Source: Laetmonice hystrix (lineage: Eukaryota). From it: a DNA stretch of 64,000 bases. Below are positions 1,691 to 40,767 of the stretch, piece after piece (positions within the stretch are counted from its first letter, which is position 1; each line of letters begins with the position of its first letter). The translations under genes and the position numbers were made by a program. Under the pieces are notes generated by a model. That model searched no databases and was not told the origin of the DNA. It saw only the letters and a program-made list of their open reading frames with translations. Location: positions 7,628,001 to 7,692,000 of the forward strand of contig OZ249436.1 of assembly GCA_965235115.1 (NCBI GenBank), read 5' to 3'.

Positions 1691-3439
1691 TGATCCTGTG
1701 TATACCATTTATATACACCAGCCTCCGCCCCCCCCCCCCCCCCCCCCCCAAACATCCCTGATTCGACGACCTCCTTCACTTGGACCGGTCAACAGTTTAG
1801 AGGCTGTACGACACCCTTACCAAGGGGCGCATTAAATGAAGGCCTTTTCAAAGTTGTAGATCCACGGCGCCATCCGTTTATTTATTTATGCCATGATACA
1901 ATAAGCGGATCCGTAACTCGTCCGCAGAGGCGGGCGGTCGCCGGTGATCAAACACGTGGACATGACGGGCGGGCAGGTCGGCAGGTTCCAGCTCCACCCG
2001 CCCGGCTAACGCTCGGTCAGCGGCCGTGTTTGCACGCACCCTGCCGGCGCGGCCGAACCATCCGTAAACAAGCCACCCGTCAGCTGCATGCTTGTCGACG
2101 GAGGCTTGTCTTCGACATTACGGTATCTAAACTTCTTAAAGAGCTCTTCATGGAAATCGTGTAGGCCTAAGGCGTAAAATATGTCATGTCATGTCAGGCC
2201 TAACAGTCATTGAAGGACAGAGCTCATGAGATAATCCTGCACGAAGGAAGGCTTTAGTTCTGATTAGATCTAAGCAGTGTTCCTCTCTGCATGTGCCTCT
2301 TATACGGTGTCAGGACAAGTCCAAGTCCTAAAACCACATGGAGTTAGGCCGAATCCTTTAATACTTGAGGATTATCTCTACTAAAAACTTGGTAAAAAAG
2401 GAATTACATGCGGAACATAAAGATTATTCAACTCATTAATAATTGCACAAGTTTATGTCTGTATACCTACAGGTGTAATAGGCATTCTCTAATTCCCTCT
2501 GACGATCTATATAGGCCTATAGCCTATAATAGGCCTAACCTGTTCTATCAAACTATATGTGACATGTCCCGTATCAGTGACAGATCCAACGGGGATTGGC
2601 GAGGGGGGGCACGTGCCCCAATCCCCCCGGCTCAATTTGGAATCCCTTCGTATTTCACAGGAAATTAGGCCCTTTGGCGCTCGTCCACCCCCCCACCCCC
2701 CCCGGCATAGCTCGGCGTCCCCCGGCATGCCCCCCGCAACGTAAATAGTAAATAGTAAATGTTATCAAGAATCATAAAGATATATTAAATATAATTTGGA
2801 AGAAGGCCGACAAGATGACAGGACGAGGTGAAAGTGCAGAGCTTGCAACAGAAGAATGTCCTCTCTAAAATAGCCGTAAGGACCGCAAGTTAGCCAATAT
2901 TTATCCAATCTTGGTTTTAAAAAAGTACATTGGCTATACTTGAACCAGAAATTGAATAGAGGTCTCTCAAATAACCTTGAAAGCAAACGCAAATATGTGA
3001 AAGTGAAGGCTGCAATGTGGCGGTATTTAGACGCACACATTCCGTTATAACAATATAGTCTGGTGAGAAAAACGGACCGAAGGAATGTTACACGGCTGAC
3101 TTGAAACACGTATAGGTCACTAAGGTTGGACCTATTGCTAGACGATTGGCTCTATCACAATATTACCACAATCTTCGTGGCGCCAAACAAGACCTATAGA
3201 TGAAAGGGGAGAGGGAAAAAGCAACTCCCATTCATGGCGTTAAAACGGGGATATATAGTGCATTCCGAAGGTCAATTTTCAAACATTATGTCTTTGTCGC
3301 GAGTAGTGTAGTGTAGCCTTTTTTACAGTCGCCCGAATATTCGAGTCGCCCGAATATCTTCGTACGATCTAGCCATGTTCGGCCGATTAATTATCGCCGA
3401 ACCTGGATGCTCCCATGGGTTCACTACGATTTGCGCGTG

Positions 3440-4230
3440 AATTTCGGTCATTTTGATCCGATATGGCGGAGATAGGAATCATTTTGATCCGATATGGCGG
3501 AGATAGAAATTTCCGTCGTTTTGATCAGATATGGCGAAGGAATTTCGGTCATTTTGATCAGATATGGCGAAGGAATATGGCGGGAGATAGGAATCATTTT
3601 GATCATATATGGCGGAGATAGGAATTTCGATCATTTTGATCAGATATGGCGGGAGATAGGAATCATTTTGATCAGATATGGCGGGAGATAGGAAGTTCAG
3701 TCATTTTGACCAGATATGGCGGGAGATAGGAAGTTCGGTCGTTTTCATCAGATATGGCGGAGATAGGAATCAGTTTGATCAGATATGGCGGAGATAGGAA
3801 TCAGTTTGATCAGATATGGCGGGAGATAGGAAGTTCAGTCATTTTGACCAGATATGGCGGGAGATAGGAAGTTCGGTCGTTTTCATCAGATATGGCGGAG
3901 ATAGGAATCAGTTTGATCAGATATGGCGGAGATAGGAATCAGTTTGATCAGATATGGCGGAGATAGGAATTTCGGTCGTTTTGATCAGATATGGCGGGAG
4001 ATAGTAAGTTCGGTCGTTTTGATCAGATATGGCGGGAGATAGGAAGTTCGGTCGTTTTGATCAGATATGGCGGGAGATAGGAATTTCGGTCATTTTGATC
4101 AGATATGGCGGGAGATAGGAAGTTCGGTCGTTTTGATCAGATATGGCGGGAGATAGGAAGTTCGGTCATTTTGATCAGATATGGCGGGAGATAGGAAGTT
4201 CGGTCGTTTTGATCAGATATGGCGGAGATA
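3440..4230. repeat. Minisatellite with mixed 38-bp and about 31-bp units
   Basis: GATCAGATATGGCGGGAGATAGGAAGTTCGGTCGTTTT (38 bp) interspersed with GATCAGATATGGCGGAGATAGGAATCAGTTT (31 bp). Confidence 0.95.
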
Positions 4231-7200
4231 TATGTGGCCGGCGAGACGCCCCTGGAATTTTGAGAATGGAGACCATTTTCATTAGGACTACCGTCGTTGC
4301 GGACTCTACGTATAGGAAAGACGCGATCTAGGCCTATAGACTTTGCCATATACCATGTTGGCAAGCCAGACACAATAAAACGTGATAGACCTATACAACC
4401 GACAAAAAGAGCGTAAGAAGGCTATATAGTACATTATGTTATGAATGTTACCCACAAAAAACTGTAGGTGGGCTCGATAATAAAATGATTTTGGCTCGTA
4501 GCCATAGAGGATGAGTGTGCAAAAACCTTCTCTGTAATCAGGTATTTCGCTTGTACGATTGAAAAAAGAAATTGTGAAATTTTAATGAGCAATAATGATG
4601 TGTTATCTTGAAAAGGACTGGACTGAGGGTTTTACCATACACAAAAGACAGATAATCAGAATACCGGTATAGGCTATTTTAAATCCCCGAGTTGACCCCT
4701 AAATTGGACAGCCTTTGTCATATTGTGTCACATGACACAATAACGTCTTTCTGTCCATTATTACAGTACACTACTAGTAATTTAGACTGTGACAGATGAA
4801 ATGCACAACGCCGGCCGTGTGACGGAGGAATGATAATGTTTCCAAGGGTATGAAAGGACGAGTAGGATACAATACGACGTTATGACTCGTCGGGTTTCGC
4901 CTGGCATTCGTTGAAATATGTCACGATACAATAAGCGAATTCACGATCGAGAAATGCGTTTTGGAGGTCAAAACTGGCGACAGCCAATTTCCGGTTCCGG
5001 CCCATTGAAAAACTTTGTCTTAACTTTAACCCGTGATAACTCTTCAATTCTTGGTTTCTTATCATACATACGGAAAATGTCTCAAAATCTGTGATTGGCA
5101 CATTTTTGGTAGTTGGGACATTTTTCGTTGCCACAAAGGTCGTCACAAACTCGTTGCAGCTTCGTCGCAAAGAATGAACATGTTCATTTTTTTGAACGAC
5201 GGTTGCAGCTGAATCGCACCGTTTTCCTGCTTGCTACAAGTGTAGCCATCGCCGTGTCCACTGGATCAACCAACCAGAAGTCGTTATAGCCTACTTGTCA
5301 GGTGATTATACGTACGAATATCAAAATGGCGGAGTTCAATGAGAATCGGTAGGCGGTCCACTGTTCGATCGCCAAGTGTAGCAGCATTACCGCGATGCGA
5401 CGAGCGAGAGACGAGCGACCGGCATCCCCCCCCCCCCCCGGTTGCGATGGGTCGTCGCAAGCAAATCGCCTGTTGAATCGCCTTGTGTAGCACCAGCGAC
5501 AGAGTTCTAGTCGCTGAACGCTCATGAACATACCGTCTGCACATATAGAACCTGTATCTTTACTCGTAATCATTCTTACCTTCCAGTAATGGGCCAGATA
5601 ATGTTACAGTGTTGGCACCTGTCCAGATCAACTTCCTGGCGCCATCTTTGGACTGTTTACAGGTCGTTACATGTGTCCATCTAGACAGTGTGCCAACGTG
5701 GCTAAAACATGTACAGATTATAGACTAAACGTGCGTCCAATTAGCCCTAAATGTGTAAGGCATTAAAGGGAGTATCTCACGAATTTCCATTAGGCCATAC
5801 ACGTGTGGCTTTTAACAAGTAATGTCTGCATTACAGTTTTCCGATATGACCCAACGCTCCTTTACCTTTTTATAGGGCCTATGTGGACTTGGCTGGTATT
5901 ATGTAAAATAAATTTATTTGAAAGTCGCCAAATCTTATTGTAGTCACTGAACTCTGGACCCGCCCCCCCCCCCCCGAGGCTGAGAGCATCCCTTTAACTG
6001 TGAACATCAAGGCTATGAAGGATTTTTGGAATCAGTGTAGTGGTATAGTCACTCACATGCTATACTATATCAATAAGAATGGGATTTTTAAAAAAAAGAG
6101 GAAAAAGGAGAGGAAGATAAAAAAAATACCCGAAATGGTTCATTGTCACGATGTTACGCACGGCTAACGCACCGTGGCGCTGGTGAGGGTGATTAACGGG
6201 CGTTTCAGATCAAAACAGCCCTGCTACACACTGGTACCAGGTGTTCACGGGCAAGGTGCGTCTAAAAATAAAGGCGTTCCATTTTTAACAAGAGTTAGGC
6301 CTACATACAAGCGGTAAGAAATGTGGCCGTTGACGGTTTCCTGTTAATTTCAAAACTTTTCTTACTTACATTGACAAAGACTTTAATGGCGTTCACATTT
6401 GTGATGTGTTTTTTTAAAACATCAGAGAAACACTATCTAGAACCATACCGAATTCAGTCTTTAGTAAAAATTATAATCTATGCCAGGCTCCTATAGTGAA
6501 TGTAAGTTATACAATTACGTAGGCCTACATTAAACCCACAGACAAAGGCTGGGCGCAACGTGAACGGATGAACACTTCGCAATAAGGCACTGTATGATTG
6601 CATTCAACAGGTCTGGATTATTTTAATGCCAGGTTTCGGCATGTTATTCACAAGAACAAGTCTCTCAAATTGCATTCTGTTGATCTACTTTTCTCTGAAA
6701 CAGGTGGTCAGTTTGAGAACTCTGACTCATCTTATCTTAGACTCATTACAGTCAGTCGATCCAGCCAAGTTTCTGGTCCCAGCGGAGGTCAGTACTCCAG
6801 GACCTCATTCATTGCTGGTTTATTGTCTTTATTATCTTTTTTATTATTTCTTTTCGTTTCTCCGAACTTGTGGTAATTCATTCCATGCAGTAGGGCGTCC
6901 GGTAGACACTATCTTTCGGCGATACAGTCACGCCAGAAACCCCCGCTAAGTGTGTTCTTCAAGTATACAAAATGGCAAATCTGTATGTTTTGAAGCATTA
7001 TGACGCGTTTGATTATTTTTAGTTATGAGTCAAGATTAGCCGGAGGTTTTTTTTCTGACGTCAGCCTAACCTGTTGGCCTATAGAGCAGGAGCCGGTGCT
7101 GTAACCCGCCGCAGGCGACGTCTATTTGTTCTCGAACATTTGTTCACGAACAAAACTTCGTGGGTTACCGCAGACGACGAAAATTTGTTCGGAAATATTA

Positions 7201-7321
7201 AGCATGTCGAATACCGGAGAAAAAAAATATTGTTCACGAAAAATAATTATTGGAAATCGGGCATAAGAGGTAGAATGTTTGGTGTGAGTGATGGTATGTG
7301 AACAAGCGGGCAAGAAGACAA

Positions 7322-7845
7322 TTTTAATGACGTCACTAAGTCATTATTTACGAGTTAATCGCGTTCGTTTCAGAGAAAAACACTTTGTGGTGATCTCGTA
7401 ATTACTACTTAGTGACGTCATTAACTCGTTATTACGACTTAATGATAACGACTTAGTGACGTCATTAACTCGTTATTACGACTTAATGACGACTTGGTGA
7501 CGTCTTTAACTCGTTATTACCACTTAATGACGTCACTAAGTCGTTATTACGAGATCACCACAATTTTTTTTCTCTGAAACGAACGCGATTAACTCATAAT
7601 AACGACTTAGTGACGTCATTAAGTCCTAATAACGAGTTGCTGACGTCACTAAGTCGTAATTACGAGATCACCACACATTTTCTTCATTGAAACGAACGCA
7701 ATTAACTCGTAATAACGACTTCGTGACGTCATTAAATCGTAATAACGACTTCGTGACGTCTTAAGTCGTAATAACGAGTTAATGACGTCATTAAGTGGTA
7801 ATTACGAGATCACCACAATTTTTTTTTTTTTTGTCTGAAACGAAT
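7322..7845. repeat. Palindromic/inverted repeat array built from TGACGTCA-containing subunits
   Basis: Subunits such as TAATGACGTCACTAAGTCGTTATTACGAG occur in both orientations; about 7325-7400 is the reverse complement of about 7535-7620; GAGATCACCACA...GAAACGAA recurs near 7551, 7664 and 7806. Confidence 0.9.
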
Positions 7846-8043
7846 TTTTTCTTCTAAATGTCCCCAACAGGGCTCCGTACCTGCTCCCCTGCATCTGTGA
7901 GGATGATAGGTCGTGGTGTGGACTGGTAAGCTCTGGTAGGGTGCGCTGCGGCAGGATGTGTACTGTCTGACAGGACTTTCTAGCGGCCACCCCAGTGTAA
8001 TTAAAGCCACAGGTACCACGACTGATGTAAACTGAAGCAACAT

Positions 8044-8185
8044 CAGGGCCGGATCCAGGGGGCCATGGGGGCCTTGTGCCCCCTCCTAAAAATCACCGCC
8101 CCCCCTGATATTCTGGATCGCCCTTTGCACCCCCTTTACTCAGAAATCTGGGCTCCTCCACTTGAAAATTCTGGACCCGGCCCTG
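8044..8185. mobile_element. Short MITE (hAT-like termini)
   Basis: TIRs CAGGGCCGGATCCAG / CTGGACCCGGCCCTG; no clear TSD. Confidence 0.6.
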
Positions 8186-8582
8186 GCTGAGATCAGTAGC
8201 ATCTGTATTCGTACTGCCAGCCAGGAGACATGCGAAAATTGTTCATCAGTTAGTCATGAGATAGGCCATGACCGTGGCAATAAAAGCATTGACTACTTCA
8301 CATAGAGCGCCAAAAGTTTTCTTTCGAAGTGAATCCATTAACGAAAATCCGCGGAGGCACGGGGGCAAGGTTGTAAATTATACACAAGAATAAACGGACC
8401 TATAATGTTACGTGGAGGCCACCAGCGAAGCGCATGAAAACGAAGAGGGTCATACGACGTGCGCCTAACGGAAATGAACAATTAGACGGTTTTTCTTCTT
8501 TAGAAAATAAGTCCTACTGTCTGAAAGCCATAAAAGTATATGTGCCTTATAGCCAACGGGTGGTTCTTGTTTGAAAGGTGTG

Positions 8583-8587
<5 letters not shown>

Positions 8588-8656
<69 letters not shown>

Positions 8657-8787
8657 CCTCTCTCTGTGTCTCCCTCTCTCTCACCCTCCCTCCCTCACTT
8701 TCTCGCTCCCTATCTCTCGCTCTCTCTATCTCCCTCTCTCTCTGTCTCTCTCTCCCTGTCTCTCTTGCCTCTCTATCCCTCTCTCTG

Positions 8788-8837
<50 letters not shown>
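8588..8837. repeat. (CT)n microsatellite with degenerate centre
   Basis: Pure CT runs at both ends with a pyrimidine-rich middle. Confidence 0.98.
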
Positions 8838-8838
<1 letters not shown>

Positions 8839-9692
8839 AACACCATGTGTCAGCTAACGGGAAGGGTGTATGGAGACGGAGAAAGTTATAGCCTCTGTGA
8901 TAACCTTAACGTGACAGGGCATTACAGACACGGCCAATTGAGGCGCAACTCATAGAATATTGCAAATAATGGGCACGTTTTGAAAGAGGGCATGTCAAAA
9001 CAGTGAAAAACTCAGATGCATAATATTCTTTGATCTTTTTATGATCTTAAATAATTGTGCATCTTTCAGTCTTTATTGCCACTGATATGTACCATTGTAT
9101 GACCTACCATTACGACCATTTCAACATTCCAGGCTAGAATAGCCAAGCCATACGCATAAAAGGTCATAATATTGCGCGACTGCTCCACAGACCTTGTATC
9201 GTCTTGTCGTTTAGGCCTATATCAGGATTTAGGAAGCCGTTGGGAGGGGGGGGGGGCGACCTCCTGTCCCCCTGCTTTCGGAGCCTATATGACTGTCAGC
9301 TCGCTGTCGAAGATGCATGAGAAATTTATAGAACAATTAGGCCAATACCATTTCTTTCCTGGCCCCTTTAGCGAACGTGGAACAACTAATTAATAAACCA
9401 TATATTAACCAAAATATCGATGGAGAAACATTTTCAACAGTTTTAGATCTAGTACAAGTCAGATATGATCTTTTCTCAAGTAGGCCTTCGGTCTGTATAA
9501 CTCAACAGATGGCGCTGTCTTACTCCGACATGGCGGACCTCTAGTATGAACAAAAACAGACTGTAAAGGGTTATTTGTTGGCGATTCGAACCTGTGAAAT
9601 GAACCTTATTTTATGTATTTGCTTAGGTCAGTTGGTCCACGAAGGGAGACGCAGTCGGGATGTAGCTGTGAACAGACGACGTTCTTGCCACC

Positions 9693-12600
9693 ATGCGGAG
9701 GTGGGCGCCCCCTAGCGGGGCGGGACGAACCACATGTCTTCTACTCCTCCACTTCTTGACGGTTCTACATGGTTAGTAACCTACATGTTGTTCTAACACC
9801 ACTATATATACTTGCAGTATAAATCTTTCCGTTAAAACCTCAATTCATTAGAAAATAAAGTGCATAATAAAGGACAGTTTAAAAAGAAGAGGCCTCGGCC
9901 AAGTTTTCTTATCGTTGAAGTCGAAACTATAACGGCAGAACCTGTGAGTTTTTGTGACATAAATCAGGGCATCTGCCTCTCTCAATTAGGCTCTGTCATG
10001 GACGAATGCAGGCATATTCTTTCTTTCAACTACTGATATAACGCCAGACCTCGTTTACTGTGAAGAAAGTTCATTCACAAAACTGCGTGTCGTTATATAT
10101 GTAACAGTACATAATCGAAAATTATTGCGTAATTAAAACCCAGTCTTAGGAAGGGAGCCCGTGGAATCCCGTATAGTGGTGACTTATAAGACATACATTT
10201 CCTTTGCGTGTTCTCATAATATCATGTTATAGACTCGTTACAAAGCTATCAGCAGTTGCTTTGCCAGAAAATGTAAACGTGTAGAGTCGCAGGCTCAGAG
10301 TGTGTGTGCTCCTGTTCTTTTTTTTCCTGTAACGACTGTGACTCTATTTCTTGACTATGTTCCAAAATGTTGCGATGTTCAACACTCTGATTTTCTATCA
10401 AGTGCATTATTTGCCAATCGGAAACTAGGCTTGGTGCAACGAGAGCACGCGAACAGGCCAAGCCTGTACTTTTCTTTCCTTATAACCGAATTCCAATGTT
10501 ATCTTTAATCCACATGCACGTATAGAGTACTATCGCGTGGTCTCTTGTCCTTGCAAACTCAAACAAACATGATTGTGTTGTTGGAGGTAAACACAAACCT
10601 GGACTACATCATACAAACAATGTTTTCCAAGCCCCCAGCCAAGTTTGTGTCAGGGCGGCATGCTCTGTACCTCATACTGCTAAATACCTTCTTAAAAAAA
10701 ACTAACAAACAAACAACACCTTGCGTTTGGACGTCCCTGAACTCCTCGGCATGATTCTTGCTGCTACTTATATTACGTTGAGGTGCGTTAACCATTTTTT
10801 TTGGCATATAATAACATGAAAATAAACATTCAAATCAGAATTATTTGTATTAGTGTACTGTTTTTGTTGTTCCCTGTGCTGTGCTGGGCAGGTGCGGCGG
10901 CCCAGGGCGAGCCACCTGACTGCAATGCCGGCTACCACTTGGCCAAGGACCAGTGCAGAGGCTGCCCCCAGGGAACCTATAAATCCACTGTTGGCCAGGG
11001 TCCCTGTGTTTTTTGTCCCAAAGATTCAAATGGTCGAAACGCCAGTACTCACGGCGAGGGCGCCACCAGTGTCACACAATGTTACTTCGTAAGTATCATG
11101 CTACAGGTAGCCTTTTTCTTAGGCCTACGATGGGGTTAGTCTTTCTACTTTTTCGGTTCTATCGCTGCTACTAAACTTGTGCTGCCAACTCAGGGCCGTA
11201 GTCTGGCCCAAATACGCAGGGCCCAGTGCCTCCTGAGCCAGTACCAAGTGTCAATTCCAGTGTCACGGTTGGGAATCCAGGCCCAATAATAATTTTTTAA
11301 ACTGCAAATCCCAGGGGGTTGCCCCCACCCTTGCCCCCTGCAGGCAAAGGCCCTGGAACCATGGATTGCTATAGTGCACTGTTTGGTAAGAGAGATCCAG
11401 TATTTTAGGCCCATACCAGTCGTAAGTTTATAGAGCCCCATGTTTTTACTGACCCCATTGTTAAACTTCGATTTTTTTTTATTGCCAGCGGCCGTTTCTG
11501 ATTTCGTTTGAACCACTACATGGACCAATAGCGGGAGGCACTCGGGTGAATCTAACGTTCGGCTATCTGGAAGAACGGATCTTCCAGAGGGCTCGTTTTG
11601 GGGACGCCATGACCACAAACTGCACACGGTAAGGTCAAAACACATATGAAAGTCAAGAAATGTTAGCTTCCTCGGGTTTCGATCCCCTACGCAAGATGTC
11701 AAATTCTCTACGCCACTTCAAATTCTCTACGCCACCTGTCCCTGCCCTGCCCAGCGGCACTATAGCGACTTTAAAAGGCCACCATACACTATGCAATTAT
11801 CATGCAAATTTGTTGTGCAACAAAAAGTCGCGAGTGATGTATGGTGGAAAATGCTGTTGCAGTAATGACGTTGCAGACGTGTACGTTGCAAAAGAATAGA
11901 GCTCTATTCTTTTGCACCTTGTTACAGCTTCTGTTATCTCCAGCCAATCAGCTAACGATAAAAGAAGGGGTTAACAAAATCGCGCACCTGTTGTATTGTG
12001 AATGGTGACCGTTACTTTGATAAATCAAGGGGTTAACAAAATTGCGCACCTCTTGTATTGTGAATGGTGACCGTTACTTTGATATATCAAGGGGTTAACA
12101 AAATTGCGCACCTGTTGTATTGTGAATGGTGCCCGTTACTTTAATATATTGGCAATTTACCTATAAAATGGTAATTTTGACATATTGAAGATTTTTAAAA
12201 GCGCCATATCTGGATAGGTCAGGATAACTAAAATGTGTTGGTGTACGTGGCAGGGAAGGGCCGTCGTTCATCTGTTACACACCGGATGTAGCTGAGCCTC
12301 AGGCCGCTCTCCTAAAGATGGAACTGACAGACAATGCCGGAGAGTACGTCCTGCGGGGACCGTCGAACTTCTCCTACCTACCAGACCCCGTCATCGACGA
12401 CGTCGACGACCCAAAGACATTCCTCAGGTTCATATAGCTTTACCTTGGATAAATTATGGCGCAGGGCTGTAGGAACAGTGGGGAGACACCCAATATTACA
12501 GGAGGACCCAGAGTACCATTTAGCCTTCCCCCCTAAATTAAACGATTTAATGTGATGTGACCACTTACGACCCTTGAAGTAATGCAGTGCACTGTTTTCG

Positions 12601-15600
12601 GTAAGGGCTGCCCCATATAGCATGACATCTGGTTGACCGGTTCAAAATTTGAAAAGCTGCCATGCGGCAATGAGAACAAGGATTGGAAATCATGTTAAGA
12701 CGGGCCGCTCTTAAATGACCTTGACCAGATTTCTTCATAGAAATGAAGTGACCAAATATTTCCTCATGTTAAGTCATAGCTCAATATTTGCGTACCTTTC
12801 CCCCCGTTCCCCATTGACGTAATTATGGTCCGTTCTCGTGGCAGTGGCGGCAAGGTCCTCACCATCTTTGGAGCCCACCTCGACTCCGTAGCGGCGCCAG
12901 GCATGTTTGTCACCAGCGTTGGAGAAAACGGACAGCGCCGCTTTCACTCGGTAGGTTGTGGGTTTTTTAAAAAAAGAAGTGACCTGTATAAGTATGGGAT
13001 ATAGTCCATAGGATAGTGCATAGGATGTAGGCTATTCATGATACTCGTGGCATAAATATAACGGCACTGTAGTGGTATAATAATGGGATCCGAGGGGATA
13101 GGAGTGGAACAGTTAAAGGAAATCTGTCCGAAAATTTAAATAAACGCAGTCAATTCAACAAAACTTGAATAAAAACAATTATTTTAAGGGGTTTCTAGCA
13201 GTCTGGTACCATGGCGCGTCCATATCGACAATGTTTTTAATTAATTAATTAAGCGTTTACCTATTTGGCTATACGAGAGCACGCGAATCAAATCATGCCC
13301 TTATTTGGATTATGGGGGGACGGCGGGCGGAGCAGTGCGGGGCAACGCATGCGCCCAATCCCGTTGCTTAGTAACAACCGCCCTAACAATGTTAACGCGG
13401 CCATGGCGGTCGTTCTCGGTTCTCAGTCCATTGAGATGAAAAACATGGGATGTATCGCCTCATTATGGCTCATAATCAACAAGAGACCTAGCACAACAAT
13501 GCTATGGATAGAATGTTTTATTAGTCCAGTGGGATAGATTATAGATCAGGTAAGCTTGAAATACGCGGATTCGTAGGAGGTGGGGACGAAACTCGGCGAC
13601 CGTAGGGTGATCGATTACCTTTAAAGGTTGTACATTTATTCTCGTTATTCTGATAGACTCAATGAGAAATCCAAAATTTTAAATCGTCAAGCAAGCATCC
13701 TGTCTAGAACATGATTGTAGGCCTACTGCCACCAGAGTGAACTGTTACCAAGCTACCCTACATAGGTACAAGTTAACAAACACAGAACAGAAAGAAGCGG
13801 ACGTTTTCCATTTTTGTTGGTAGGATTGCAGCCTTGTGAACAGCACGCAGATGATATGCCCGACTCCCAATCTGACTGAGAGTGTGCCACCGGAAGTAGC
13901 GGTAGGCCGACAGTCGGTGCAACCAGTGCGACGCGACAAACGCGACGCTGAGGTCGCCAAACCAATCAACAACGACGATCTCCAGTTCTTCCTCGGCTTT
14001 GAGCTGGACGGAGTGAAAGACTTCACGAATGTCACCGCCATCCACGTATATCGGGACCCTGTGTTCCACCGCTTTGATTCCACCAATAATGTTCATTATT
14101 ACATCCGCTCCAAAGATGCCTTCCTCAGGCTAAAGGTAGGTCCATAACAAGCAATTAAAACCTTCATGGACTAGGCTAGTCTACCCTCCCCTCGGTAAGG
14201 TTTAGTTGCAGCTCAGTTCGATAAGAACTTGGGAACATCTGTGGTTATGTAGTGCCAGATGTTGTTACGTCACTCGTTCTTTGCTGTAGACAGTCCCCAA
14301 ATAGATTAGGCCAATGTCATTCTTCATGATTTTGGTTTGTTCAAGCCTTGGGATATAGCCTACATTTTGTTATCATTATATAACCAATGTCGCCGCCAGG
14401 GAGAACGACTCGACTACAGCACAAGTATTAACGACTTCACGGTCCTGGTTGGTCGCGGGAGATGTGACGTCACAGACCTAGCAACCAATCAGCTCACCTG
14501 TAAACCCCCATTAATACGCCCAGGATTTTTGGACGAGTGGCGCGGGCCAGATGAGTCGCTTCCTGTCGTGGTAATTATAGGCCTAATTAGTGAATACGGG
14601 AGGGCATAAACCCCTATCTTACAAACTCAGGTCTTTAGCTTCAGGTCACAGTGTGGACGAGACATTGGGTGAGGTCAAATATGAGAGTTAACTATACGCC
14701 TGGATTATCCAGGTGTTATGTCAGGAAAAAGCGTTAACCTGGACCTTTAACACTAGGCTCCAGTTAACATTTTGACTACACCTTGTTAATACTTTGAAAA
14801 AACTCAGGTAACACTTTCCTGAGTTTTGACCTGTCTCAGGTGTTAACCCACAGGCGGTTAACACTTATGTATAGGTTTTCTGTGGTATTCCAAAGACACT
14901 TGGGACCTTACTGAGATTAAGGGGACACCTGAGTTATCTAGGTGTTTCCAAGGTGTGTTTTAGGTGTTAACACGTTGTTGAGACAGTGTTAACTCAGTGT
15001 TAAGTAAACACCCAGGACGAGGTCAAATGTCCGATTTATAGAACACTTTCTTAATACCTAGCGTTAACACCCATTTAACATTTAGATTTGACCTTACCCA
15101 TTGTAAGTGTTTCCAGGACCGAAAGCTCTTAATTGCCTGAGATATGGTCAATGATATTCTATCCACGCAACGATCGACACCGGAGTGCATGTCAGAAATG
15201 GAAGAATTGTGTGTGTTTTCACTTCTCCGCGGGGAATATGCCTATACTGATGGCTCGATGGCATGTCTTGAAATGAACTCTTTTGTGACCCTGCACCGAC
15301 CAAAACATTCCCTTTATGATTAGTCCTACCCGATGATGGCATCAATGATTAATTTTGTGCCGGGTTGGTATGTCGCATTCACATCAATCACAGTTTTAGC
15401 GTCCCCAAGTTGACAGCGACTAATTACAATGAATTATCATTGCAGGTGTTGGTCGGGTATTTGAAGTTCCACGTGGGTTTCGTGAAGTACACAGACTCTG
15501 ATGAGAAGGAACTCATACTATGGTTGTCTATTACCGCTATCCTCATGCTATGGGTGGTCACTCTATGCGCATGCATCGGCTGGAATCTGCGCAGGCGTAC

Positions 15601-18600
15601 TGGTACGTCCAACATCCTGGGTACCGGTACCGCCAACGTGAACGGCATCGGGCCCAGCAAGACTGGCGTGAGGGGAGTTGGCGAGTACCTCTACACGGGC
15701 GACAGCTCAGGTGAGAAAGTGCCCCTAACTAGGTATATATGCCCTAATAAGGGAATGACATAATGGGAGACTCGAGACGCATGCGCAAGGGGGCATTCCA
15801 GGCACAACCACGTGGCAGCAGCACTGTCGTGCCGGTGTGACAGGAATCCAAGTCCTCAGACTTATCAGATAACACCCGTTCATAATACATTTGTAGTTCT
15901 CAAGTATCCACTAGGTGGTTTATGGTGGGGGCAAGTCTATACATAAATCCTTTAAAATATAGACCTATCATACAATTTTCAATTCTGTTATAATATCAAG
16001 TGGCCGTCATAATATGCCATCGACCATTAGGCCCAAGAATTCCAGCATGCGTACGGTCCATAGGCCTATAGGCTAAATGTAGGCTGAATGTTTCAGACGA
16101 TACGGCTGTGACGATTGTCCCTCCGCTGGATGTAGAGGTCGCTCATATAGCAAGTGGCGACCTCTGGTCGGCGATTGAGGAACCTCTCCTGTCAAAGGTC
16201 AAAGAGCATCAAGTGGACTCAAGTCGGCTCAAACTCGGAGAATGTATTGGTGTCGGTTTGTATCGTCTATTAGTTGTCACCAAGTCACCCATTATAGGCC
16301 TAGGTGACCTGTTGGTCATGCAGGGGGGGGGGGGAAGATCGTCTATATCATCACCAAGTCACCCATAGGCCTAGGTCTAGGTGACCTGTTGGTCAGGGGG
16401 GAAGAAGCAGTGGGAACCATTTTTAAAACCGTCATATAGACCATCTATTGGTCCTCTATGATTATAGCTGACTATATATGAGAAAAATAAAACGCTAATC
16501 GTCAAAACCCGGAGGATTACAAATGCGACCTCTGACGGCTAGTAGGCCTATAGGCCTAGGCCTAATAAAGGCTCGTATCGGACCCGGCAGCGAGGTGGTC
16601 TGAAGACGCATTAAAAATGCATTTTAACCCCCCCGCCCCTTTCCGTATTTACATGCACTTTTCTCACTTGTGCAAATGTCTGCAGGAAGCTTTGGTCGTG
16701 TTTACAAGGGTGAGATGGAGGAGGCCGACGGTGGTGGTAATATGGAGGTTGCGGTCAAGACATTACGTGGTGAGTGAGCGTCCCACCGGCCCCCTGGTGG
16801 CATGGCGAGGAACTAGTCAGAACATCATTTTCTTTCAAAATTTTTAAAGGCAACTTTAGATGAACTTTGCATTTACGGACCCTTTAACTTACAAATTATC
16901 TTACATATTTACATCATTGATACGCTTGGAATACGCCCCTAATTTCTTTCAGAGTCAGGCGGGGAAAATAGTAGGCCTAGTCACACCTGAGGACTAGCGT
17001 ATCATTATAGCTGTTACGTAGTGGTGACGGGCGTGAAACTAGTCCATTATTTTACGTACAACAGATGGTTCCGTGTCAGGGAACGAATTGCCACAGTTCC
17101 TGGAGGAAGCCCTGGTAATGGCTGGCTTCGAGCATGAGCATATCCTGCCACTGTATGGCGTGGTGGTTAACGGCAGTATCCCATACGTTATATCGGAGTT
17201 CATGGATAAAGGTGACCTTCGCTCCTTCGTCAAACAAACCTCCAAGGTCAGTGCTGTAACGTTACTTGTATCAAGTTAGAATTTTGGATTAGTAGCCAAT
17301 TAGGTCGATGTCAAGGTCTTTTCTTTTTGACATAAAAAGTATGTCCCAATTAAAAACTCAAGAAGCCTCTTTTGTGTAAGCATAGAGATATAGGCTAAGC
17401 CTACGCTGTTGACCCCCTTCCCATCGAAAAAAAGCTCCATAGACTCAGTCAACGGTCTCAGATCAAAACTAGTATGTCAATGGCTTTCCAGATCAAAGAC
17501 AAAATGAAATATTTGACGTATTGAAACTTGACTCCTATCATTTCCAGGCTCAGACGGGCCCAGGGGAGCTTCTGAACTTCGCCCGCCAGGTGGCAGTAGG
17601 AATGGTATATTTATCCGCTAGGGGTTTCATACATCGCGATCTGGCAGCTCGCAATTGCCTGTAAGAGTCTTTTCTTTTTGCGAATATATTTTCGTCACGC
17701 GAGATAGTCATATGGGTCATTTTTATATGCAGTTTAATTACATTAAATGATATCACATGTAGATTCTAAGCATATTAGTTATGAGAAACCCGTACGGGGG
17801 GAGGCATAGGCCTACATCTAGGCTAACTGATGCCGTCTTGGCCAGAACCAAAAACAAATCAAAACAATTGGTTCTGATTTTACCTTCATATTTCCTTTCC
17901 AAAATATTTCCATTTCAGTGTAAATCACTCAAATTCGGTAAAGATTGGAGATTTTGGGTTGTCACGTGATCTTCATGGCGCAGATTACTACAAAGTTGGA
18001 GATATTGGCCGACCTCTCCCAGTAAAATGGATGTCCGTCGAGAGCCTCAACCTCGGAAAGTTTTCTTCCCGCTCCGACGTGGTAAGACTTCATTAATACA
18101 TGTGACGTAGATGATTAACCCTAGATCTTGCTTAAGCATAAACTTGATTCTTCTGATTGGTTCCACCAAACCGGGAACTCATTTAGCGGCGTTAAGCTTA
18201 GAGGTCTACGCCGAAGCTAGCGGGTTGAACTGCTGGACGTTTAAGGAACAGGACCTTGCATCCTGACCTAATTAGCAGGTCCCATAGCCATGCTTCATTC
18301 ATCTAGAATTTATTTAAATACGTGAGAGCAAGAAGACTTGATTGATACAGTTTAATGTGTAGCCTAACAAGACCTGATTCCTCACACCTTGCTTCTACTT
18401 CCAGTGGTCGTTCGGTGTCGTGATGTGGGAACTCCTAACCAGGGGGCGTACTCCGTATGACTCCGTCCCGAATGTGGACTTGAAAAATCACATTAACCTC
18501 GACAACCGGCTGCCACAGCCCGAAGAAGCTAGTGACGAAATGTAATTTCAGTGTCATTTTCTTGAAAAGTAAAGAAACATTTGCTAGAAAATATGGGCCT

Positions 18601-19185
18601 AAGTAATGCTGAATGGTAAAAATTAATGGTGTCTCGAATCGCAAAATATGCAAACCACCTCACTCTGGCATTTCGAACTTTCAGGCAATCTTTGATGGAA
18701 CGCTGCTGGCGTTGCCAGCCCGACGAAAGACCAACATTCGAAGACCTAGTGACTGCTTTGGAAGAACTCATTAACAATAATGTCAGTAGCGGCCCTGATT
18801 CACAGATACCCTGAATAGGTTACGGCCTCACATGACGTATTATAGGCAGGCCTTACTGGGCAAACACCCAGAACCTTTGATATTCTGTGGCTCACCCAGA
18901 GCGCGCAGATAGAAAGATACCTCAAGTTGGTGGTTCAAGGCGTTCAAGGTTCGGTTTTGTTGAAAGGTACCCCCGTACTACAGTATTACACAGGATACGT
19001 CGGTGTTTGTTGAAGATCGCCGCGACTGCTCGCCTGCCCGACGTGTGGACGCTGACGTATGGAGTAGGCAGACGACAGAATCAGTGGAAAGACGGAGCCA
19101 ATACTTTGCTACGTCCAAACAGAAGTTGTACAAACTTGAAGGTGTACGTATTGAACGCCAAGTGCTTATGTCTGATGTACTTTAA
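9693..19185 (+). CDS. Met/plexin-like receptor tyrosine kinase (signal peptide - ephrin-receptor-like Cys repeat - 3 IPT-like domains - TM - tyrosine kinase)
   Basis: Phase-consistent exons: 9693-9771 (GCCACCATG, upstream in-frame TGA, hydrophobic signal), 10892-11088 ([19 protein letters not shown]...GATSVTQC), 11489-11628 ([14 protein letters not shown]), 12254-12427, 12845-12950, 13824-14135, 14400-14570, 15446-15710 (TM then RRR), 16097-16255, 16686-16769 (GVGSFGRVY, VAVK), 17065-17246, 17548-17660 (HRDLAARN), 17919-18081 ([15 protein letters not shown]), 18405-18541 ([14 protein letters not shown]), then either 18685-18814 (stop; 803 aa) or 18685-18781 + 18967-19185 (865 aa). Confidence 0.9.
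11965..12148. repeat. 62-bp tandem repeat, 3 copies, in RTK intron
   Basis: AAGGGGTTAACAAAATTGCGCACCTGTTGTATTGTGAATGGTGACCGTTACTTT starts at 11965, 12027 and 12089. Confidence 0.92.
14662..15104. mobile_element. MITE with internal GTTAACAC-type subrepeats in RTK intron
   Basis: TIRs ACATTGGGTGAGGTCAAAT / ATTTGACCTTACCCATTGT. Confidence 0.65.
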
Positions 19186-20742
19186 TAAAGAAAGTGATCA
19201 TGGAAATCATAAACCACACAGAGAGCTGCTGTGAAGGTCTAGTTTCAGCATATAGGACATATTCTGATGTCATTTTACAATTTACTGGTAATTTCATTGA
19301 TACGGATATTCCGTGGCTCATGTCATGTATAAAGGCATCACAAAAGACAGACCAAAACATTTCTAAGTCGATTTTACTAACAGAACTACTACGGGAGTGG
19401 TCTGGAATTGACTTGACGTAATTTACGCTGTACAAACGCCTGTTCGTGTTAGGAGATCAGTGTATCTTCAGAACTGGGCGGGAAACCCATCAGTATTTTT
19501 TTACTGCCAAGTGTCTCAACTTTGAACCCTAGCAACCATTGCTACGTTACAGTGGGCCAGTCTGCTGCTGCTGTGAAACGTTTGTTCAAGGTCACTAATG
19601 TCACCGAGCCTGTAACGTATTCAGTAGACTTTTTAGGATTAGACCATACGGTATGGAACAATTTCAATACATGTTGCTGAAACTAATCCGCAATAAACGA
19701 TTCTTCACTGGATTCACAAATAAACAATTCGATCTGTATTTAGAAGTCCTTTCAGCACATGTATAAGAGATGGTCCTAACATCGCAGATCGTAGGCCCCG
19801 CATTTCTGAGGCAAAACTTAAAGATTCAAATGTAAAGAAAACCTGTAGATGTAAGAGTCAGGTAAAAATAAAATGTTCTCTTCAAAACGACTCAAGCGTT
19901 TAGCGTACCCGAATTGATCTTTAGACAAAGAAAAAACTAGTACTACTAAAAGAGTGAGTTAACTGTACATACATATACGGCATATCTGTATCCGACTCCA
20001 GTGTCATTCATTTGTCCAGTGATACTGTTAACGAAGACGTCATCACAGATCAAGACAGTATGCAATAAACTCAAAGAGTTTATCTTCTAGAAACGTAGGA
20101 GATAATGTCAGCGTCTGAGATCAACGGTGTTCAAGCTGTTCATAATATGACAACTGTAAAATTTCATGAAAATTCGTTGCTTTATTTTCAAGTTATGATA
20201 CTAAAGCATTATTATGTACATTATATACCTAAAATCGCATTTCTGCACAGCAGAAAGTTACCTAAGTAACCTTAATACAAATTGGCCACCACCATTTTCG
20301 GAATAGCTTCCGAACCCTCTATGAACGTATGGCAAGTATAACTTTCACTGTAGGTCTTCCTACCCCAAATTTGACCAAAATAAATACATGTATTAAGACA
20401 TTATTTTTTCTCAATATACTTTCTGAGAACATGACTCCTTGTCTAAAATACAAGCTTTAATAAGGGTGCAAAATGTCACATAATTATTTTGAAATGCTGT
20501 AATTTGCTTCAATGGATGGAAATGTATGAAGTCAACTCATAAAACTGTTAACTCTGCAACTCCTGTATAAAAAGTATGCTAATGTACAAGATATCTAATC
20601 GGAAAGGCAGTTTCCATGTATTCATAGTTTTAAACTGCTGAGCAGTTGAATGTACTTTCCATAAATTGTTAATGATGCTGGTATGAATGAGTTATTTTAC
20701 TCCCTAAGTAACAAAGTATTTCCACTGGATTTGGTCAATTGA

Positions 20743-23700
20743 CTACGCGGGTATAAGTGGGCACTTATTTTTCCGATGACCTGGAAACACAGAAAGAAAA
20801 TCCGTAAAGTGATAGGACAGAGCACAATATACCGAAAACTAAAGCATTATACATGTATTACATATAGCAATCACCTCTGAATTTGAGGGCCAAGTAAAGC
20901 CAACCAATTCGTTTCTAAGCTTGCCAGATATTGAAAATCCAATCATATTTAAGTTTTCTTAGAAACATTGCAGGAGAACACACCAGACAGGTCATTAAGT
21001 GTTAACTAATACACTGTATACATTTATTCCGTTAGTTTCCGTGATTTTGGATGAAATAAACCGATGTGTATACCTGGTTGTCGACAGTTACTGCATGTCA
21101 TTTTTCTCTTGGTGCCAGGCTGTTGATTTGCTCCCTGTCGAGCATTACTCGCAGCTTCGTTACCACCTCTGTATCCCCCACCTGTAAGGGGTTCATAGAA
21201 ATGTGATAGGGTCATTAGAATATCATCTTATATTATATTTCTGTAAAATAAAAGTCAAACGTGAAGATGAAGCCAAGCTAATTTATACACCGTCGGCCAC
21301 ATACCCTGGAATCCTCCTCCTCCTCCTCCCCCTCCTCCTCCTCCTCCCCCTCCAACACCTGCAGCCTCGTCACCCCACTGGAAGAAGTTACAACCTTCTC
21401 CACGTGGTTTGGGGCAACCGTAGAACTGACGACCTTTGTTGGGACCTTCCTTCTGTACTGTCAGCCTAAAACAGTCCATTTGTTCATCAATATACACATT
21501 TCTGGTGTTGACGGGGAATTTTTATATGAATCCTACTATTTATTTAGTGTGTATACCGTGTATACCGTAAGGTACAGGAGAGGAGCAAAGTTTACTCACT
21601 GTTTTGCAGCTTGACCACATTTACACATAACGTCATTGTTGCCGCCAACAGAAGTCCCTGCCCAACTCTGCCTCTGTGGTGGTGGAGGTCTATGATACAA
21701 AACCAGGACATTACTCGCAAAGGCCACTGAGTAAATTTATATAAATATATACAATACTGAACAACATGCCAACAATTCTACAAGAGACAATGCAGGCCTT
21801 TTCTCCATAGGAAGTTTAATATTCGAACAGAATTAAAAGCTATGTGGTAAAATCTTACCTATTATTGTTATAAGAATAATTTCCAGTCTGTCCCCCGCCG
21901 TATGTGCCCCTGCCTCCACCCCCGCCCCTGCCTCCATCCCCGCCCCCGCCCCCACCACCATCACCGCCTCCACCACTTTCATCTGCCCACAAGAAGAATG
22001 TGCATCTGTCGTCCTGTGATTTGGCACACACGTAAAAGGTACGTCCTGCAGAAGACAAAAATTTGACTCGTATTCTAGTACCAGTGTTCATAATAGGCGG
22101 CATTTTTCATGCACTTTTTTCATCGTCGAAGCCTATCTCATAACAAGCCTGTGCTATCATCTATCATCACCTTACCTCTAGAAATGTTTACTCACCTTTG
22201 TTTGGTCCCTCTTTTTTTACTGTCAGCAGCCTGCCATCCTCACCACAGTTGCAGACAATGGCACTTGCTTCATCATTAGCACCTGAACTTGGCTGGAAGT
22301 TCGCCCGGCTGCCTGGACCACCTCCATGACCTCCCCGACCACTTGGCAGCAAGTTAGGACGACTTGATTGTACTCCTACAATCAACCAGGAGAAAACTAT
22401 TCTCATACTTTGCAACAATAACGATTTTGAAATTTTTCAGCAGAGTGAAACTCTACAAATCTCACACCTGAGTCAAGTAAATGTCTCCATACCTTAATAG
22501 TGATTTATGAGTCTTTTTTTTTTATTTATGACTCTCTAAAGAGAAATATAAGCCTGAAAATATCCCATTTATATCCTTAGGAAGGTATGAACTTTGCAAT
22601 ATTTTGATCCTTGACGGAAGAGTTATACAGGCACCTGAAGATCCTAGCGGTGTTCTTCTGGTGTTCTGTGTTGAGAAGGAGCGAGTATTTTGTGATCCAA
22701 AACCAGTTGTACTCAAGTTGGAGTTACTGTTCAGGCTGCTTCCATATCCACTGTCATTACCACGGCGTGACGTCTGACTTACACCTGGGCCATCCACCAT
22801 GAGAAATAGGGTTAGCACCTTTTAAACGTTAAATAGCAATGATTGGGTAATTAAATTCTGTGTGTGAAGAGATCTTTTAGACTACCTGTTGGTCTTTGTG
22901 TTGGTGTCCATCTGATATTCAGAGCTTCTCGGAGCTCATTATCACAGCTTATACATGTTATATACCTAAAACACATCAGTCACAGATTACGATCCTTTCT
23001 AAGTACAGCTGCGGATAATCTAGATTCATCTGAAGGTGCTCTCCTGAATTAGTTAACTCTATATAAGGAGCCGAAGTAGGTCACGAGATGTTGCACTACA
23101 ATGCGATAAAAGTCAGTTCATTAGGCTCAAAAGACTCATAGGTGACACTTCATTATCGCTCAAGCTTGTTTAGCATTGCACCGGCCATAAGGAATGGCGA
23201 CTGTCAACTTCAACTTGTGATTTCTCTGTAATTATGCTGCTCTTAGTCATGAGCCTTCCCAGATATTTGTATCAACCTGTTTTATGTTTAAATAAATATT
23301 TTTGATACTTAAAAAATCAAAATTCTTAAAGACTAGGCTGATCTTTGGAACTATGTCTCTTCATCTTATGTTAAACCAGTGGGGAAATTTGTGACATAAC
23401 AATTGTGTGTCAACAGCGCTGCAGTTTTGACGCTCTATTTGTACCTCCTAACCAGAAAACCCATAATCGTGCCGCGAGACTTCAGTTCCCTATTGACTCA
23501 ATAATCCCTTTAAGAAAGACATCCATTTACCGACAACTTAACACCTGGTCACACTTACTCCAGTGGTATGTAAGGCGGAACTGATCCTCTTTTGAACTTA
23601 AACTTGATCTTACGCGGGTTTCCCGCACACTGAAAAGTATATGGTGAAAAGACATATCTGTCAAAGTCAATCAAACACAAGCCATACAGTCAGCTTTATA

Positions 23701-26700
23701 CATGTATACATACTTCTTGACTCAATATTTTCACATTTAGTTACAAATTAATGAATAAAAATTAAAGCAAAAGCTTGCACCCCCTACCTGAGCACATTTT
23801 TCCTCTTCAACAGTTGCATGTAGTACAGATTCTGGGAGCCAGATAGCATTCCGACAGTCTGGATAACCCATACAGGTCAGGAAGTACCTACATAATGTAC
23901 ATGTAAATATGACCAAGGTTTGTCTCATATCCTGGCATCACATTTCACATCATTTCCTGAATGGACTCGAACACATTTTTATTATCTTCAGGTTACTATT
24001 CTTGGTTAAATATGGCTGTCCCTTTTGTTAAAGCATCAGCTATGCGTATAATGGCGGGCTCAGACAGTGCGACGCGACTGCTTGCGACGCGACTCCATCG
24101 TCGCGTCGGCCTGTCTGAGCTACCTTGCAATGCGATTCTGGCCAGTTGCAGTTGCGTCGCAAGACATGTTTTATATTTTGCAACTGGTTGCTTTGTCTGA
24201 GCGGGCTGCCAACGCGACTGGACCGTTGCTAGCGCTAATAACCAATAAGAGACAATCATTTATTGTTCTTGTGACGATTACAACGTCACAAGCTAATTGT
24301 GACGTAATAGGGTCGCTGTAGCGCTAGCGATCACGTTGCTCTGTGTGAGCTCTCCCGTCTTTCAGTCGTGTGCAACTTGCGATTCACTGCAACTGTTGCC
24401 GTTGCAAGGAATCGCGTTGCATCGCTCTGTCTGAGCCTGCCATTAGCATCCTATCTTCAGAATTCATGTCCATATTTTGACTGTTTAATTGAAAATTAAA
24501 TGGAACATATTCAAAGATTATTTTCAAGTTATGTATAAGTTATTGAGCTTGTTGTAAATCAGGCTGAAAACAAAGAAACTAACGTACAGAAAGAAATCAG
24601 CAACATTTTTAACGCAATGTGTTTTTTTAATTAACTTGATTAAACCATACCCTTTTCCATCTTTCTTGGTCTTCATTACCATATCCTGACCACACTGGTC
24701 ACATTTCCGAGCAACCAGCGAAACCTGGGGCTCAACATCTGTGGGGGAAACAGATTTAAATTAAATTTAGTAAGCAATTTTTAAAATTACAGTTCAAATA
24801 GTGCAGGATCATGGCTGCTGGAATACAGCTATACTACCTGATTAAATACCAGTAAATCAGGGGTCAAATCTTTTCATCACATCATGTTTGTCATTAAATA
24901 ATGTCCTTCAAAGAAAGAATGTTCAGGGAAAGTATTTTTCTGTCAGCCTACTAGTAAACCTCTGGTAACGAAATATTGATTTGAAAAGTTTTATTCAATG
25001 AACTTGTCATGAGCTATATAAATTAAAGTTATGTTACTCACCCTGGGCCTGGTAAGGTGCAGCATTGCCAAAATACTCAGACAGAGCTGCATCTATTTTT
25101 TGAGCCTATAATCAAAAGTTCAAATACATTTTAAACATAAACGTTAAATATATTATTGTGTTATAATCACAGAAATGTGTGACCACTGCAAGACCAAGCA
25201 GCTATTTTCTTTACCAATGTCATTTCATTCAAGGATCGGTATACACAAGTATATAAATAAACACACACAGGAGTTTACCATGACAAATTTCTTTGATCTT
25301 ACCTGCTTGACTGCCTCTATAAATACCAATTTATAATTCTGTATCTGTTGCTGCAGTACATCTGAAAGACAGTAAGGCCACAACTCTGGATAAAAGTTAG
25401 AATGATAGAATGTAGCCTGTTACTATCCTACAACTAGCATATATACATGAGTACCGTATATATACCAAATAGATCACCACACTCTAAAACCAAGGTGATT
25501 TGGACCTCATGGTCAGGGAAAAAGGTTCTTACAATAGCTGAGCACCTCCCTGATCTGTTCCACCCAGCTTACCACATGTAACCGTAGGCCTACTAGACAA
25601 AACATACATAGTCACAATATAGCCTGAACGTTTTCTTTGCTTTTGCAAAACATCTTTTAAAGGGAACCCCCACCCCTACTTTTAAAGTCATCACAGATGG
25701 CCACATACAATGACCAGTCTAGTTTATACAGTAACCACTAGGTGTCTCACTGACTGAGCAGATTGTGCTGCCCTTGAACTAGCTACGCTCCTTGGCGACC
25801 ATCAGCGCCAAGGAGCGGAGCGGCGGGCAGGGGAACCAAACTACCCTTCAACTGCCATGTGTCAACACGGGAAATAGTAAACGTGACACCTGGTGGCTAG
25901 TGGGGGAACTATCCTGTGGTCTGTCTTTTCGATAGATGGCCACACCCCAAATTTCAGGTTGGGCTCCAGGGGGGAAAAATGTGTCGATCTATTATACGTA
26001 TATCCGTTTTTAAATACCTATAGAAACCACATGATAAAAAGAGCTATTATCTACATGTGAATTGGTCTGGCCTGAAAAGCAGATTGAATGTTATTCAATG
26101 GACAAACGGAAAATAATGACATACCATCCTTGTCCTTGTGACCCTCACATATCCTAAAGGAACAAAACAAGAAATGATTTAATGTATATAGTTGTGTTGT
26201 GTACTGTCAAGTTCACTGTGTGCACAATACTTCTGTTCAACTTCTCAATATCCAATACTCTTCAAAAACTGATATGAAAATTACACTGAAAGATCAGTTT
26301 GTTCCTGTACTCACAATTTTAAATCTGCTTCCAATTCTGCTCTCAAGTTGGGTTTGGACATCTCATACCCCATGGCATCATAACCTGAGAATATATAGTA
26401 AATATAGTCTATTTCATATTACAAACCAGCAAGCCACAGTTGGGTAAGTCTTGTATTACATTTCTGTGAACCCTCACATACATCAGATAATCACCATTCC
26501 AGAATGTGACCTCACCTTCAACAAGACCCATTCCAAGTTCACCAGGTACAAACTTGGAGTCTGGTCGAACTCCCACATAGAGCCGCGATTTGATGGTCTC
26601 AATATGATCAGCATGAGTGGCGTCAGTACCTGGGGTAAGAGAAACGTGGAAAACATATTAAACAAAATAATTTATACTTGTCCCAATTCAACAGTTAATG

Positions 26701-39588: not shown

Positions 39589-40767
<1,179 letters not shown>

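Follow-up and report, generated by a model that had tools for sequence, protein, structure and literature searches.

A predicted Sema-less receptor tyrosine kinase of Laetmonice hystrix with an ephrin-receptor-like cysteine repeat ahead of a Met/plexin-type IPT stalk

A 64,000-nucleotide stretch of the Laetmonice hystrix genome (GenBank assembly GCA_965235115.1, contig OZ249436.1, positions 7,628,001 to 7,692,000 of the forward strand), referred to here as the window and numbered from its first letter, carries a gene for a putative receptor tyrosine kinase (RTK) at 9693-18814 (+). The predicted order is a signal peptide, one Ephrin_rec_like (GCC2/GCC3) repeat, three IPT-type domains, a transmembrane (TM) helix and an intact tyrosine kinase. 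That this gene model, which has no Sema domain, is correct we consider very probable. Judging from the domain borders, the Sema-PSI-IPT1 head of a gene of the Met/Met-LP type was likely replaced near the IPT1/IPT2 boundary by a single GCC2/3 module. The product would work like a Met-type RTK yet appears to fit none of the definitions of Met/Ron, Met-LP or Eph receptors.

The gene model

The window was read from 8500 to 24000 and exons were joined at splice sites; the spliced protein is predicted from DNA. The 15 exons give a single open frame of 803 codons, each of the 14 introns has GT-AG borders and a length of 143-1120 nt, and the G+C content is 47-61% in exons and 35-47% in introns. The ectodomain has about 415 residues, only 92 of which precede the first IPT, and the 12 Cys that follow the signal peptide leave none unpaired.

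Exon 1 (9693..9771, +) encodes a signal-peptide-like segment (residues 1-26) and ends at a phase-1 donor. Its ATG at 9693 lies in the context GCCACCATG, and stop codons in its frame lie 24 and 30 nt 5' of it (9669 and 9663); the 11-residue hydropathy reaches 2.58 and the G+C content is 0.61, against 0.39 in intron 1. Exon 2 enters in phase 1 and leaves in phase 0, the phase in which exon 3 opens; the frame therefore depends on exon 2, and skipping it would cause a frameshift. Intron 1 (1120 nt) has a longest open plus-strand frame of 91 codons and intron 2 (400 nt) one of 49 codons. The first-pass annotation of this stretch had proposed a Sema-less RTK with an N-terminal ephrin-receptor-like Cys repeat, and the 15-exon open frame together with a match to PF07699 above cut-off confirms that proposal. 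The Kozak ATG, the upstream in-frame stop and the in-phase join of signal and Cys exons that it described were all recovered, and the lengths that it gave for introns 1 and 2, too small for a Sema domain, are exact. Its catalytically complete kinase and GCC2/GCC3-like Cys motif also hold (see below); the end that it quoted, 15710, is that of the TM exon only, since the kinase lies at ~16230-18770 and the gene ends at 18814.

At the end of intron 1, a methionine-led hydrophobic stretch of 26 codons (10816-10891, +; hydropathy 3.31) is in frame with exon 2 and is the sole one of its type among the 14 intron ends. It is possibly an alternative start and a second signal-peptide candidate, or perhaps a chance product of the T-rich acceptor tract. 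Either candidate start (9693 or 10816) places a signal peptide immediately before the Cys module.

We think it very unlikely that the model is incomplete, i.e. that the gene is an ordinary Met or Met-LP whose Sema and PSI exons lie upstream of the window past a long intron, with exons 1-2 as an alternative or internal start. The window holds just 9.7 kb upstream of the gene and there is an acceptor-like AG before position 9627; however, upstream exons would be unable to read through exon 1 because of the in-frame stops between 9627 and the ATG, all introns of the gene are short, and a signal peptide stands directly before the Cys exon from either start. None of the 136 plus-strand frames (≥ 30 residues, window 1-13,830) contains Sema or PSI, in a Pfam scan that is insensitive to short exons and also missed IPT exons 3-5; the one frame among them with Ephrin_rec_like is that over exon 2. 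An exon-like series upstream was likewise not found by a splice-plus-codon scan, in which the best candidate scored 23.5 and ten true exons 27.5-80 (in-sample). The segment 6633-6787 was rejected as an exon, as its splice sites alone score and its coding score is 3.5 bits.

The cysteine module

Exon 2 (10892..11088, +; residues 27-92) matches PF07699 Ephrin_rec_like with 36.6 bits (cut-off 23.1) and an E-value of 3.8e-9 over model positions 7-48 of 48. Pfam was scanned exon by exon on all 15 exons with the curated gathering cut-offs. The six Cys of the repeat (37, 48, 51, 65, 68 and 90) are all intact, and the top PDB sequence matches are the Cys-rich region of EphA2 (E 2.7e-4). A 23-residue stretch within the exon (10,963-11,031, +) resembles IPT1 of human RON (E 0.005), which we judge coincidental; the idea of an IPT1 remnant was dropped because the PF07699 match over six Cys is much the stronger and because IPT1 of human and Aplysia Met is unlike exon 2 by eye.

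The IPT stalk and a furin-type site

The three IPTs encoded by exons 3-8 start at residues 93, 183 and 310 (IPT-a, IPT-b and IPT-c). Exon 3 (11489..11628, +) encodes the first half of IPT-a, the equivalent of MET IPT2 and plexin IPT4. Its four best PDB matches are all human MET 657-685 (best E 4.5e-4), followed by plexin-A, and residue 2 of the exon is aligned to MET Pro657. MET IPT2 comprises residues 656-739 in the published description (PMC5344233); because exon 3 opens at the start of MET IPT2, Sema-PSI-IPT1 appears to have been exchanged for the Cys module. Exon 4 (12254..12427, +) encodes the remainder of IPT-a with a CYTP motif and the start of IPT-b (DPVI); exon 5 (12845..12950, +) encodes the middle of IPT-b, with the SGG..LTI.G..LDSV..P pattern of MET IPT3. 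Both were assigned by eye from human and Aplysia Met motifs, exon 4 having no Pfam match and exon 5 no Pfam or PDB match. Exon 6 (13824..14135, +) completes IPT-b, including an insert of ~30 residues, and contains the start of IPT-c (DPVF); exon 7 (14400..14570, +) encodes IPT-c, the equivalent of MET IPT4 and plexin IPT6. The end of IPT-c lies on exon 8 (15446..15710, +), which also encodes the TM helix (residues 416-437, 15512-15577, +; 19-residue hydropathy 2.47) and a juxtamembrane segment with Tyr474 and Tyr476.

The Pfam TIG family (PF01833) is seen on exon 7 alone, below cut-off (E 0.004, 17.5 bits against 20.9), because introns split the IPT domains and the scan was exon-wise. Exon 6 has weak PDB matches to plexin-A IPTs (IPT5-6) and ESM Atlas TIG clusters below 0.9, which we treat as leads only. 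A HMMER search with exon 6 against 1.84 billion representatives gave 25 matches, 24 of them related exon-like fragments (32-47% identity); the 25th (P0023), an unrelated repeat protein, was removed before any counts. One of the relatives, P0003, crosses the exon 6-7 junction (42% identity, E 6e-31).

We take the 18-residue insertion of the human MET long isoform to be the product of an alternative splice site, and we assume that MET exon 8 begins at the same codon as exon 3 here, i.e. at the exon 2/3 junction. In the supplement comparison, this insertion falls at the position of intron 4. MET exons 7-8 are reported as 240 nt in total, spanning IPT1/IPT2 (PMC4469304). In the published account of RON, exon 11 (49 residues, IPT4) parallels the phase 0-0 exon 7 of the window gene, and exon 19 (46 residues, frameshift if skipped) parallels its 137-nt exon 14 (PMC12392513). 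By eye, the stalk motifs align with IPT2, IPT3 and IPT4 as annotated for human and Aplysia Met in the supplementary data of the Met survey (PMC6374515), and these likenesses support a Met/plexin descent of the stalk.

The loop insert of IPT-b contains a furin-type basic site, RRDKR (residues 268-272, 13929..13943, +), with both IPT-b cysteines (234 and 244) N-terminal of it. This site inside the second IPT was no part of the first reading, and it is likely to be cleaved. R-x-[KR]-R is found at the equivalent place in 19 of the 24 exon-6 relatives, though the surrounding insert varies widely. Notch and adhesion GPCRs (G-protein-coupled receptors) are precedents for activation by release of a cap. 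By analogy, the N-terminal piece of the present receptor (Cys module, IPT-a and most of IPT-b) might be pulled off or shed after the furin cut and so switch the kinase on. The position of the site, the two cysteines on its N-terminal side and its recurrence among the relatives are consistent with such a release, but the relatives are nameless exon fragments without context and may therefore be ordinary plexins or Met-LPs as well as true relatives, Aplysia Met likewise has a basic stretch within an IPT (IPT2), and activation of MET is described as not requiring cleavage (PMC5344233). On balance, we regard activation by cap release as quite unlikely.

The kinase domain and its placement

Exon 9 (16097..16255, +) completes the juxtamembrane region and begins the Gly loop of the kinase in the gene model, and exons 10-15 (16686-16769, 17065-17246, 17548-17660, 17919-18081, 18405-18541 and 18685-18814; together 16686..18814, +) encode the kinase, including the activation-loop Tyr684/685, and a short Tyr-free tail with the stop codon. 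PF07714 is matched on six of these six exons. The catalytic motifs are all present: GxGxxG at 533, VAVK at 556, the αC Glu, HRD at 652, DFG at 672, the YY pair at 684-685 and SDVWS. The last Tyr is residue 733. In the literature available on MET, the C-terminal two-tyrosine docking site Y1349/Y1356 carries Met signalling (PMC5344233); these docking tyrosines are absent here, as there is no Tyr in the final 70 residues, a loss that the first-pass annotation did not note. Tyr474 and Tyr476 of the juxtamembrane region are the likely docking candidates.

With the same gene model, the protein could be a ligand-independent kinase or a co-receptor, dimerizing with itself or pairing with a full-length Met, Met-LP or plexin, and the Cys module could be a mere spacer or folding cap. 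Short-form RON, without most of its ectodomain, is described as constitutively active through spontaneous dimerization, and a number of RON and MET forms with IPT deletions as auto-active (PMC12392513, PMC4469304); a tail free of docking tyrosines would also fit a partner-dependent kinase. We nevertheless find this account unlikely: MET's Sema domain is reported as required for dimerization (PMC5344233), and the module has its six Cys intact, scores above the Pfam cut-off and belongs to an ectodomain with no unpaired Cys.

The exon-wise best matches of the kinase differ. Exon 13 matches MET best (48 bits; Trk 46.7); for exon 14, the best single-domain matches are TYRO3, AXL, RON and MER; and for exon 11 a choanoflagellate RTK (RTKC8) and EphB stand ahead of MET (35 versus 31 bits). 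The kinase is ~42% identical to that of Aplysia Met (hand count, ~109/262), and the Lottia and Aplysia Met kinases look, by eye, far closer to one another than to it. Identity to the kinase of a second RTK, found on the contig L002, is 40% (107/269). As its identity is no more than about 40% with both Aplysia Met and the L002 kinase, we place it, loosely, as a divergent Met/Axl-group kinase and not as a Met orthologue. The label Met/plexin-type given by the first-pass annotation is thus supported for the stalk, where the best PDB matches of exon 3 are MET IPT2, but not for membership of the kinase in Met proper.

L002 carries a spliced RTK gene (1519-4200, +) in which one exon is Frizzled-like (PF01392 at E 2e-5, under the cut-off) and which also encodes a TM helix and a Met/Axl-type kinase; the contig is filed in a metagenome-assembled genome of Dehalococcoidia and is likely animal DNA from host contamination. 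It has all six kinase introns of the window gene; the codon is identical for five of them, and the sixth is offset by no more than one codon. Kinase intron positions were therefore rejected as proof of Met membership. The Frizzled-like head implies that such kinases have been re-fitted with other heads elsewhere.

Relatives and sequence variation

The nearest exon-6 relative is 34-48% identical. A tree of the 24 exon-6 cores has no well-supported branch. Cluster members of two relatives, P0002 and P0009, sit on contigs of two matching sizes, which suggests that these are neighbouring paralogues in another genome. A metagenome scan gave one short locus, on a 1.2-kb contig (L001:139-1011, +), with related IPT exons that have the borders of exons 6-7; relative to the latter, it has one additional intron and two basic sites. 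One scan of prokaryote genomes gave none, and another gave L002 and a bacterial kinase (L003, 29% identity), which was dropped. AlphaFold models of exon 2 and of the relative P0018 have pLDDT (predicted local distance difference test) scores of 52 and 50, too low for use, and a fold search yielded nothing at E ≤ 0.001. Neither P0018 nor the exon-5 frame brought up a relevant entry when searched by sequence against the PDB.

Public DNA contigs from one sample are colinear with the window through introns 1-2, except at 10669-10742. These 74 bases are unbridged among the pieces listed and have normal read depth; intron 2 is covered by two contig pieces with a 28-letter overlap. The 34 listed differences (9267-11739; 108 others are unlisted) include six in exons 1-3, four of them silent, two missense (H20P and V60L) and none nonsense. 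The listed indels all lie outside coding exons (12/12; 33 others are unlisted). Introns 5 and 7 contain very high-copy repeats (13,064-13,757 and 14,662-15,099, respectively), and 14,663-15,098 is skipped in the contigs of all three runs, i.e. it is a presence/absence insertion.

Proposed mode of action

The Met head has been swapped for a small Cys module in this model, and the receptor is therefore likely to respond to a signal other than that of Met. We propose a secreted precursor that furin likely cleaves after Arg272. The resulting pair of chains would be held together non-covalently, because the cut falls within one IPT fold and both Cys of that domain lie N-terminal of it. The IPT stalk would keep the Cys module off the membrane, where a partner other than HGF or a semaphorin (a protein of the matrix or cell surface being the likeliest) may bind or cluster the module. 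Clustering would dimerize the receptor and lead to trans-phosphorylation of Tyr684/685, with output through the juxtamembrane Tyr474/476 or through a co-receptor, bypassing the Grb2/Gab1 docking tail of the Met type. [quoted passage not shown] Granted the gene model, we lean towards activation via the Cys module. As a whole, a furin-processed two-chain receptor whose Cys module is clustered by a non-HGF partner is the best explanation that we can offer, with about an even chance of being right: its anatomy is observed, its working deduced. We see as quite improbable the bolder proposal that this gene is the first member of a Sema-less receptor class that is derived from Met, conserved and probably annelid, in which a GCC2/3 cap sits non-covalently on a furin-split IPT, a non-HGF partner turns on the kinase by binding this cap or removing it, and the Met docking tail is dispensed with.

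Several points weigh against the proposed clustering receptor. A codon model trained on the gene itself scores exons 1 and 2 as non-coding (-5.9 and -2.9 bits, leave-one-out), while 10 of the 15 exons score > 5 bits in the same test; the composition of signal peptides and Cys modules is atypical, though the scores do count against the model. The function of Ephrin_rec_like is given as unknown in its published description (PMC6993872), and in Eph receptors the module is not the ligand-binding domain. The placement of the kinase is soft, its exon-wise best matches being split among MET, TYRO3/AXL/RON/MER and others, and its introns are older than Met, as L002 has all six. Word-index searches with exon 6, exon 13 and profile A1 retrieved no full-length homologue, blanks that are weak because even the conserved kinase exon matched nothing, and no relative with the same full architecture emerged from the word-index, metagenome or prokaryote-genome scans. 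With no full-length relative retrieved, the gene may be a one-off. Such a gene could be a chimera, either young or in decay, that has no conserved function and is made of a partial Met-like duplicate and a stray GCC2/3 exon, and the two missense changes among six coding differences in exons 1-3, like the want of a homologue with this architecture in the searches run, would suit that origin. We consider it highly improbable, however, given 803 open codons over 15 exons with all catalytic motifs and listed indels that avoid the exons; moreover, the low identity of even the nearest exon-6 relative indicates long divergence under selection.

Comparison with known receptors

With Met/Ron (HGFR/MST1R, including the Aplysia and Capitella Met described in PMC6374515), the window gene shares three membrane-proximal IPTs, a TM helix and tandem activation-loop Tyr. 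The LPVKWM and ELxTRG motifs and a parallel exon layout are also common to both. Part of the parallel in layout draws on full MET exon sizes that we assume. The window gene differs in lacking Sema, PSI and IPT1 (three IPTs, not four), with a GCC2/3 module instead, in having its basic site in the IPT3-equivalent, whereas that of Met/Ron is in Sema, and in lacking the C-terminal bidentate docking Tyr; its product has 803 residues, compared with about 1400. The lophotrochozoan and echinoderm Met-LP RTKs (Junqueira Alves et al. 2019, PMC6374515), described as ligand orphans, also have a plexin-type IPT stalk on an invertebrate kinase, but the ectodomain reported for them is that of a complete plexin (Sema, three PSI, six IPT) and only the last three IPTs are found here. 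As described, that survey searched with Sema queries and for this reason could not have found the window gene.

The Aplysia LRRTK (ApLRRTK) is another lophotrochozoan RTK whose shuffled ectodomain includes a GCC2_GCC3 region; it is described as having leucine-rich repeats flanked by GCC2_GCC3 and an FGFR-type kinase, with no IPT in that description (PMC4200351). Head swapping on invertebrate RTKs, GCC2/3 included, is thus already on record in the published account of ApLRRTK. Eph receptors share the combination of an Ephrin_rec_like module and a tyrosine kinase, but the window gene has an IPT stalk, and the Pfam scan of its exons found no ephrin-binding domain, FN3 or SAM; its tail is too short for a SAM. 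Short-form RON and MET delta7-8, as reported, are Met-family kinases that lack much or part of the ectodomain; they arise from a full-length gene, as isoforms or as deletions in tumours, whereas the window gene is separate and has a signal peptide of its own and a new head. We found no literature report of GCC2/3, IPT and kinase in combination; the amphioxus kinome (D'Aniello 2008) or 'HGFR-like' database annotations may hold it.

Every Met and Met-LP reported in the survey keeps its Sema head, which binds ligand and aids dimerization (PMC6374515). A natural gene with the last three IPTs and the kinase, a new head and no docking tail is a test of the part that the IPT stalk plays in Met-type activation; an HGF site has been reported in IPT3-4 of MET (work cited in PMC5344233). 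It would also be a minimal system for the GCC2/3 module, the function of which is stated as unknown (PMC6993872), and it indicates that Sema-anchored surveys overlook part of the family. The weight of the case is limited by how common head swapping is in invertebrate RTKs, and the combination is known here from the DNA of one gene.

Other features of the window

A TOP3A-like gene (~21,250-30,400, -) lies tail-to-tail with the kinase gene and encodes Topoisom_bac, a Top1 zinc ribbon and three GRF zinc-finger exons. Further along are three ordinary neighbours: a CCSMST1-family exon (36,437-36,847, +), a histone H3 gene with an intron (40,369-40,767, -) and an unkempt-like gene with CCCH fingers and a RING (46,826-62,830, -). 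Tandem arrays occur at 923-1667 (54 bp), 3594-4230 (38 bp), 7399-7807 (30-41 bp) and 11,965-12,149 (62 bp), and a 2-bp (TC) tandem tract occupies 8587-8837, ~850 bp 5' of the start codon.

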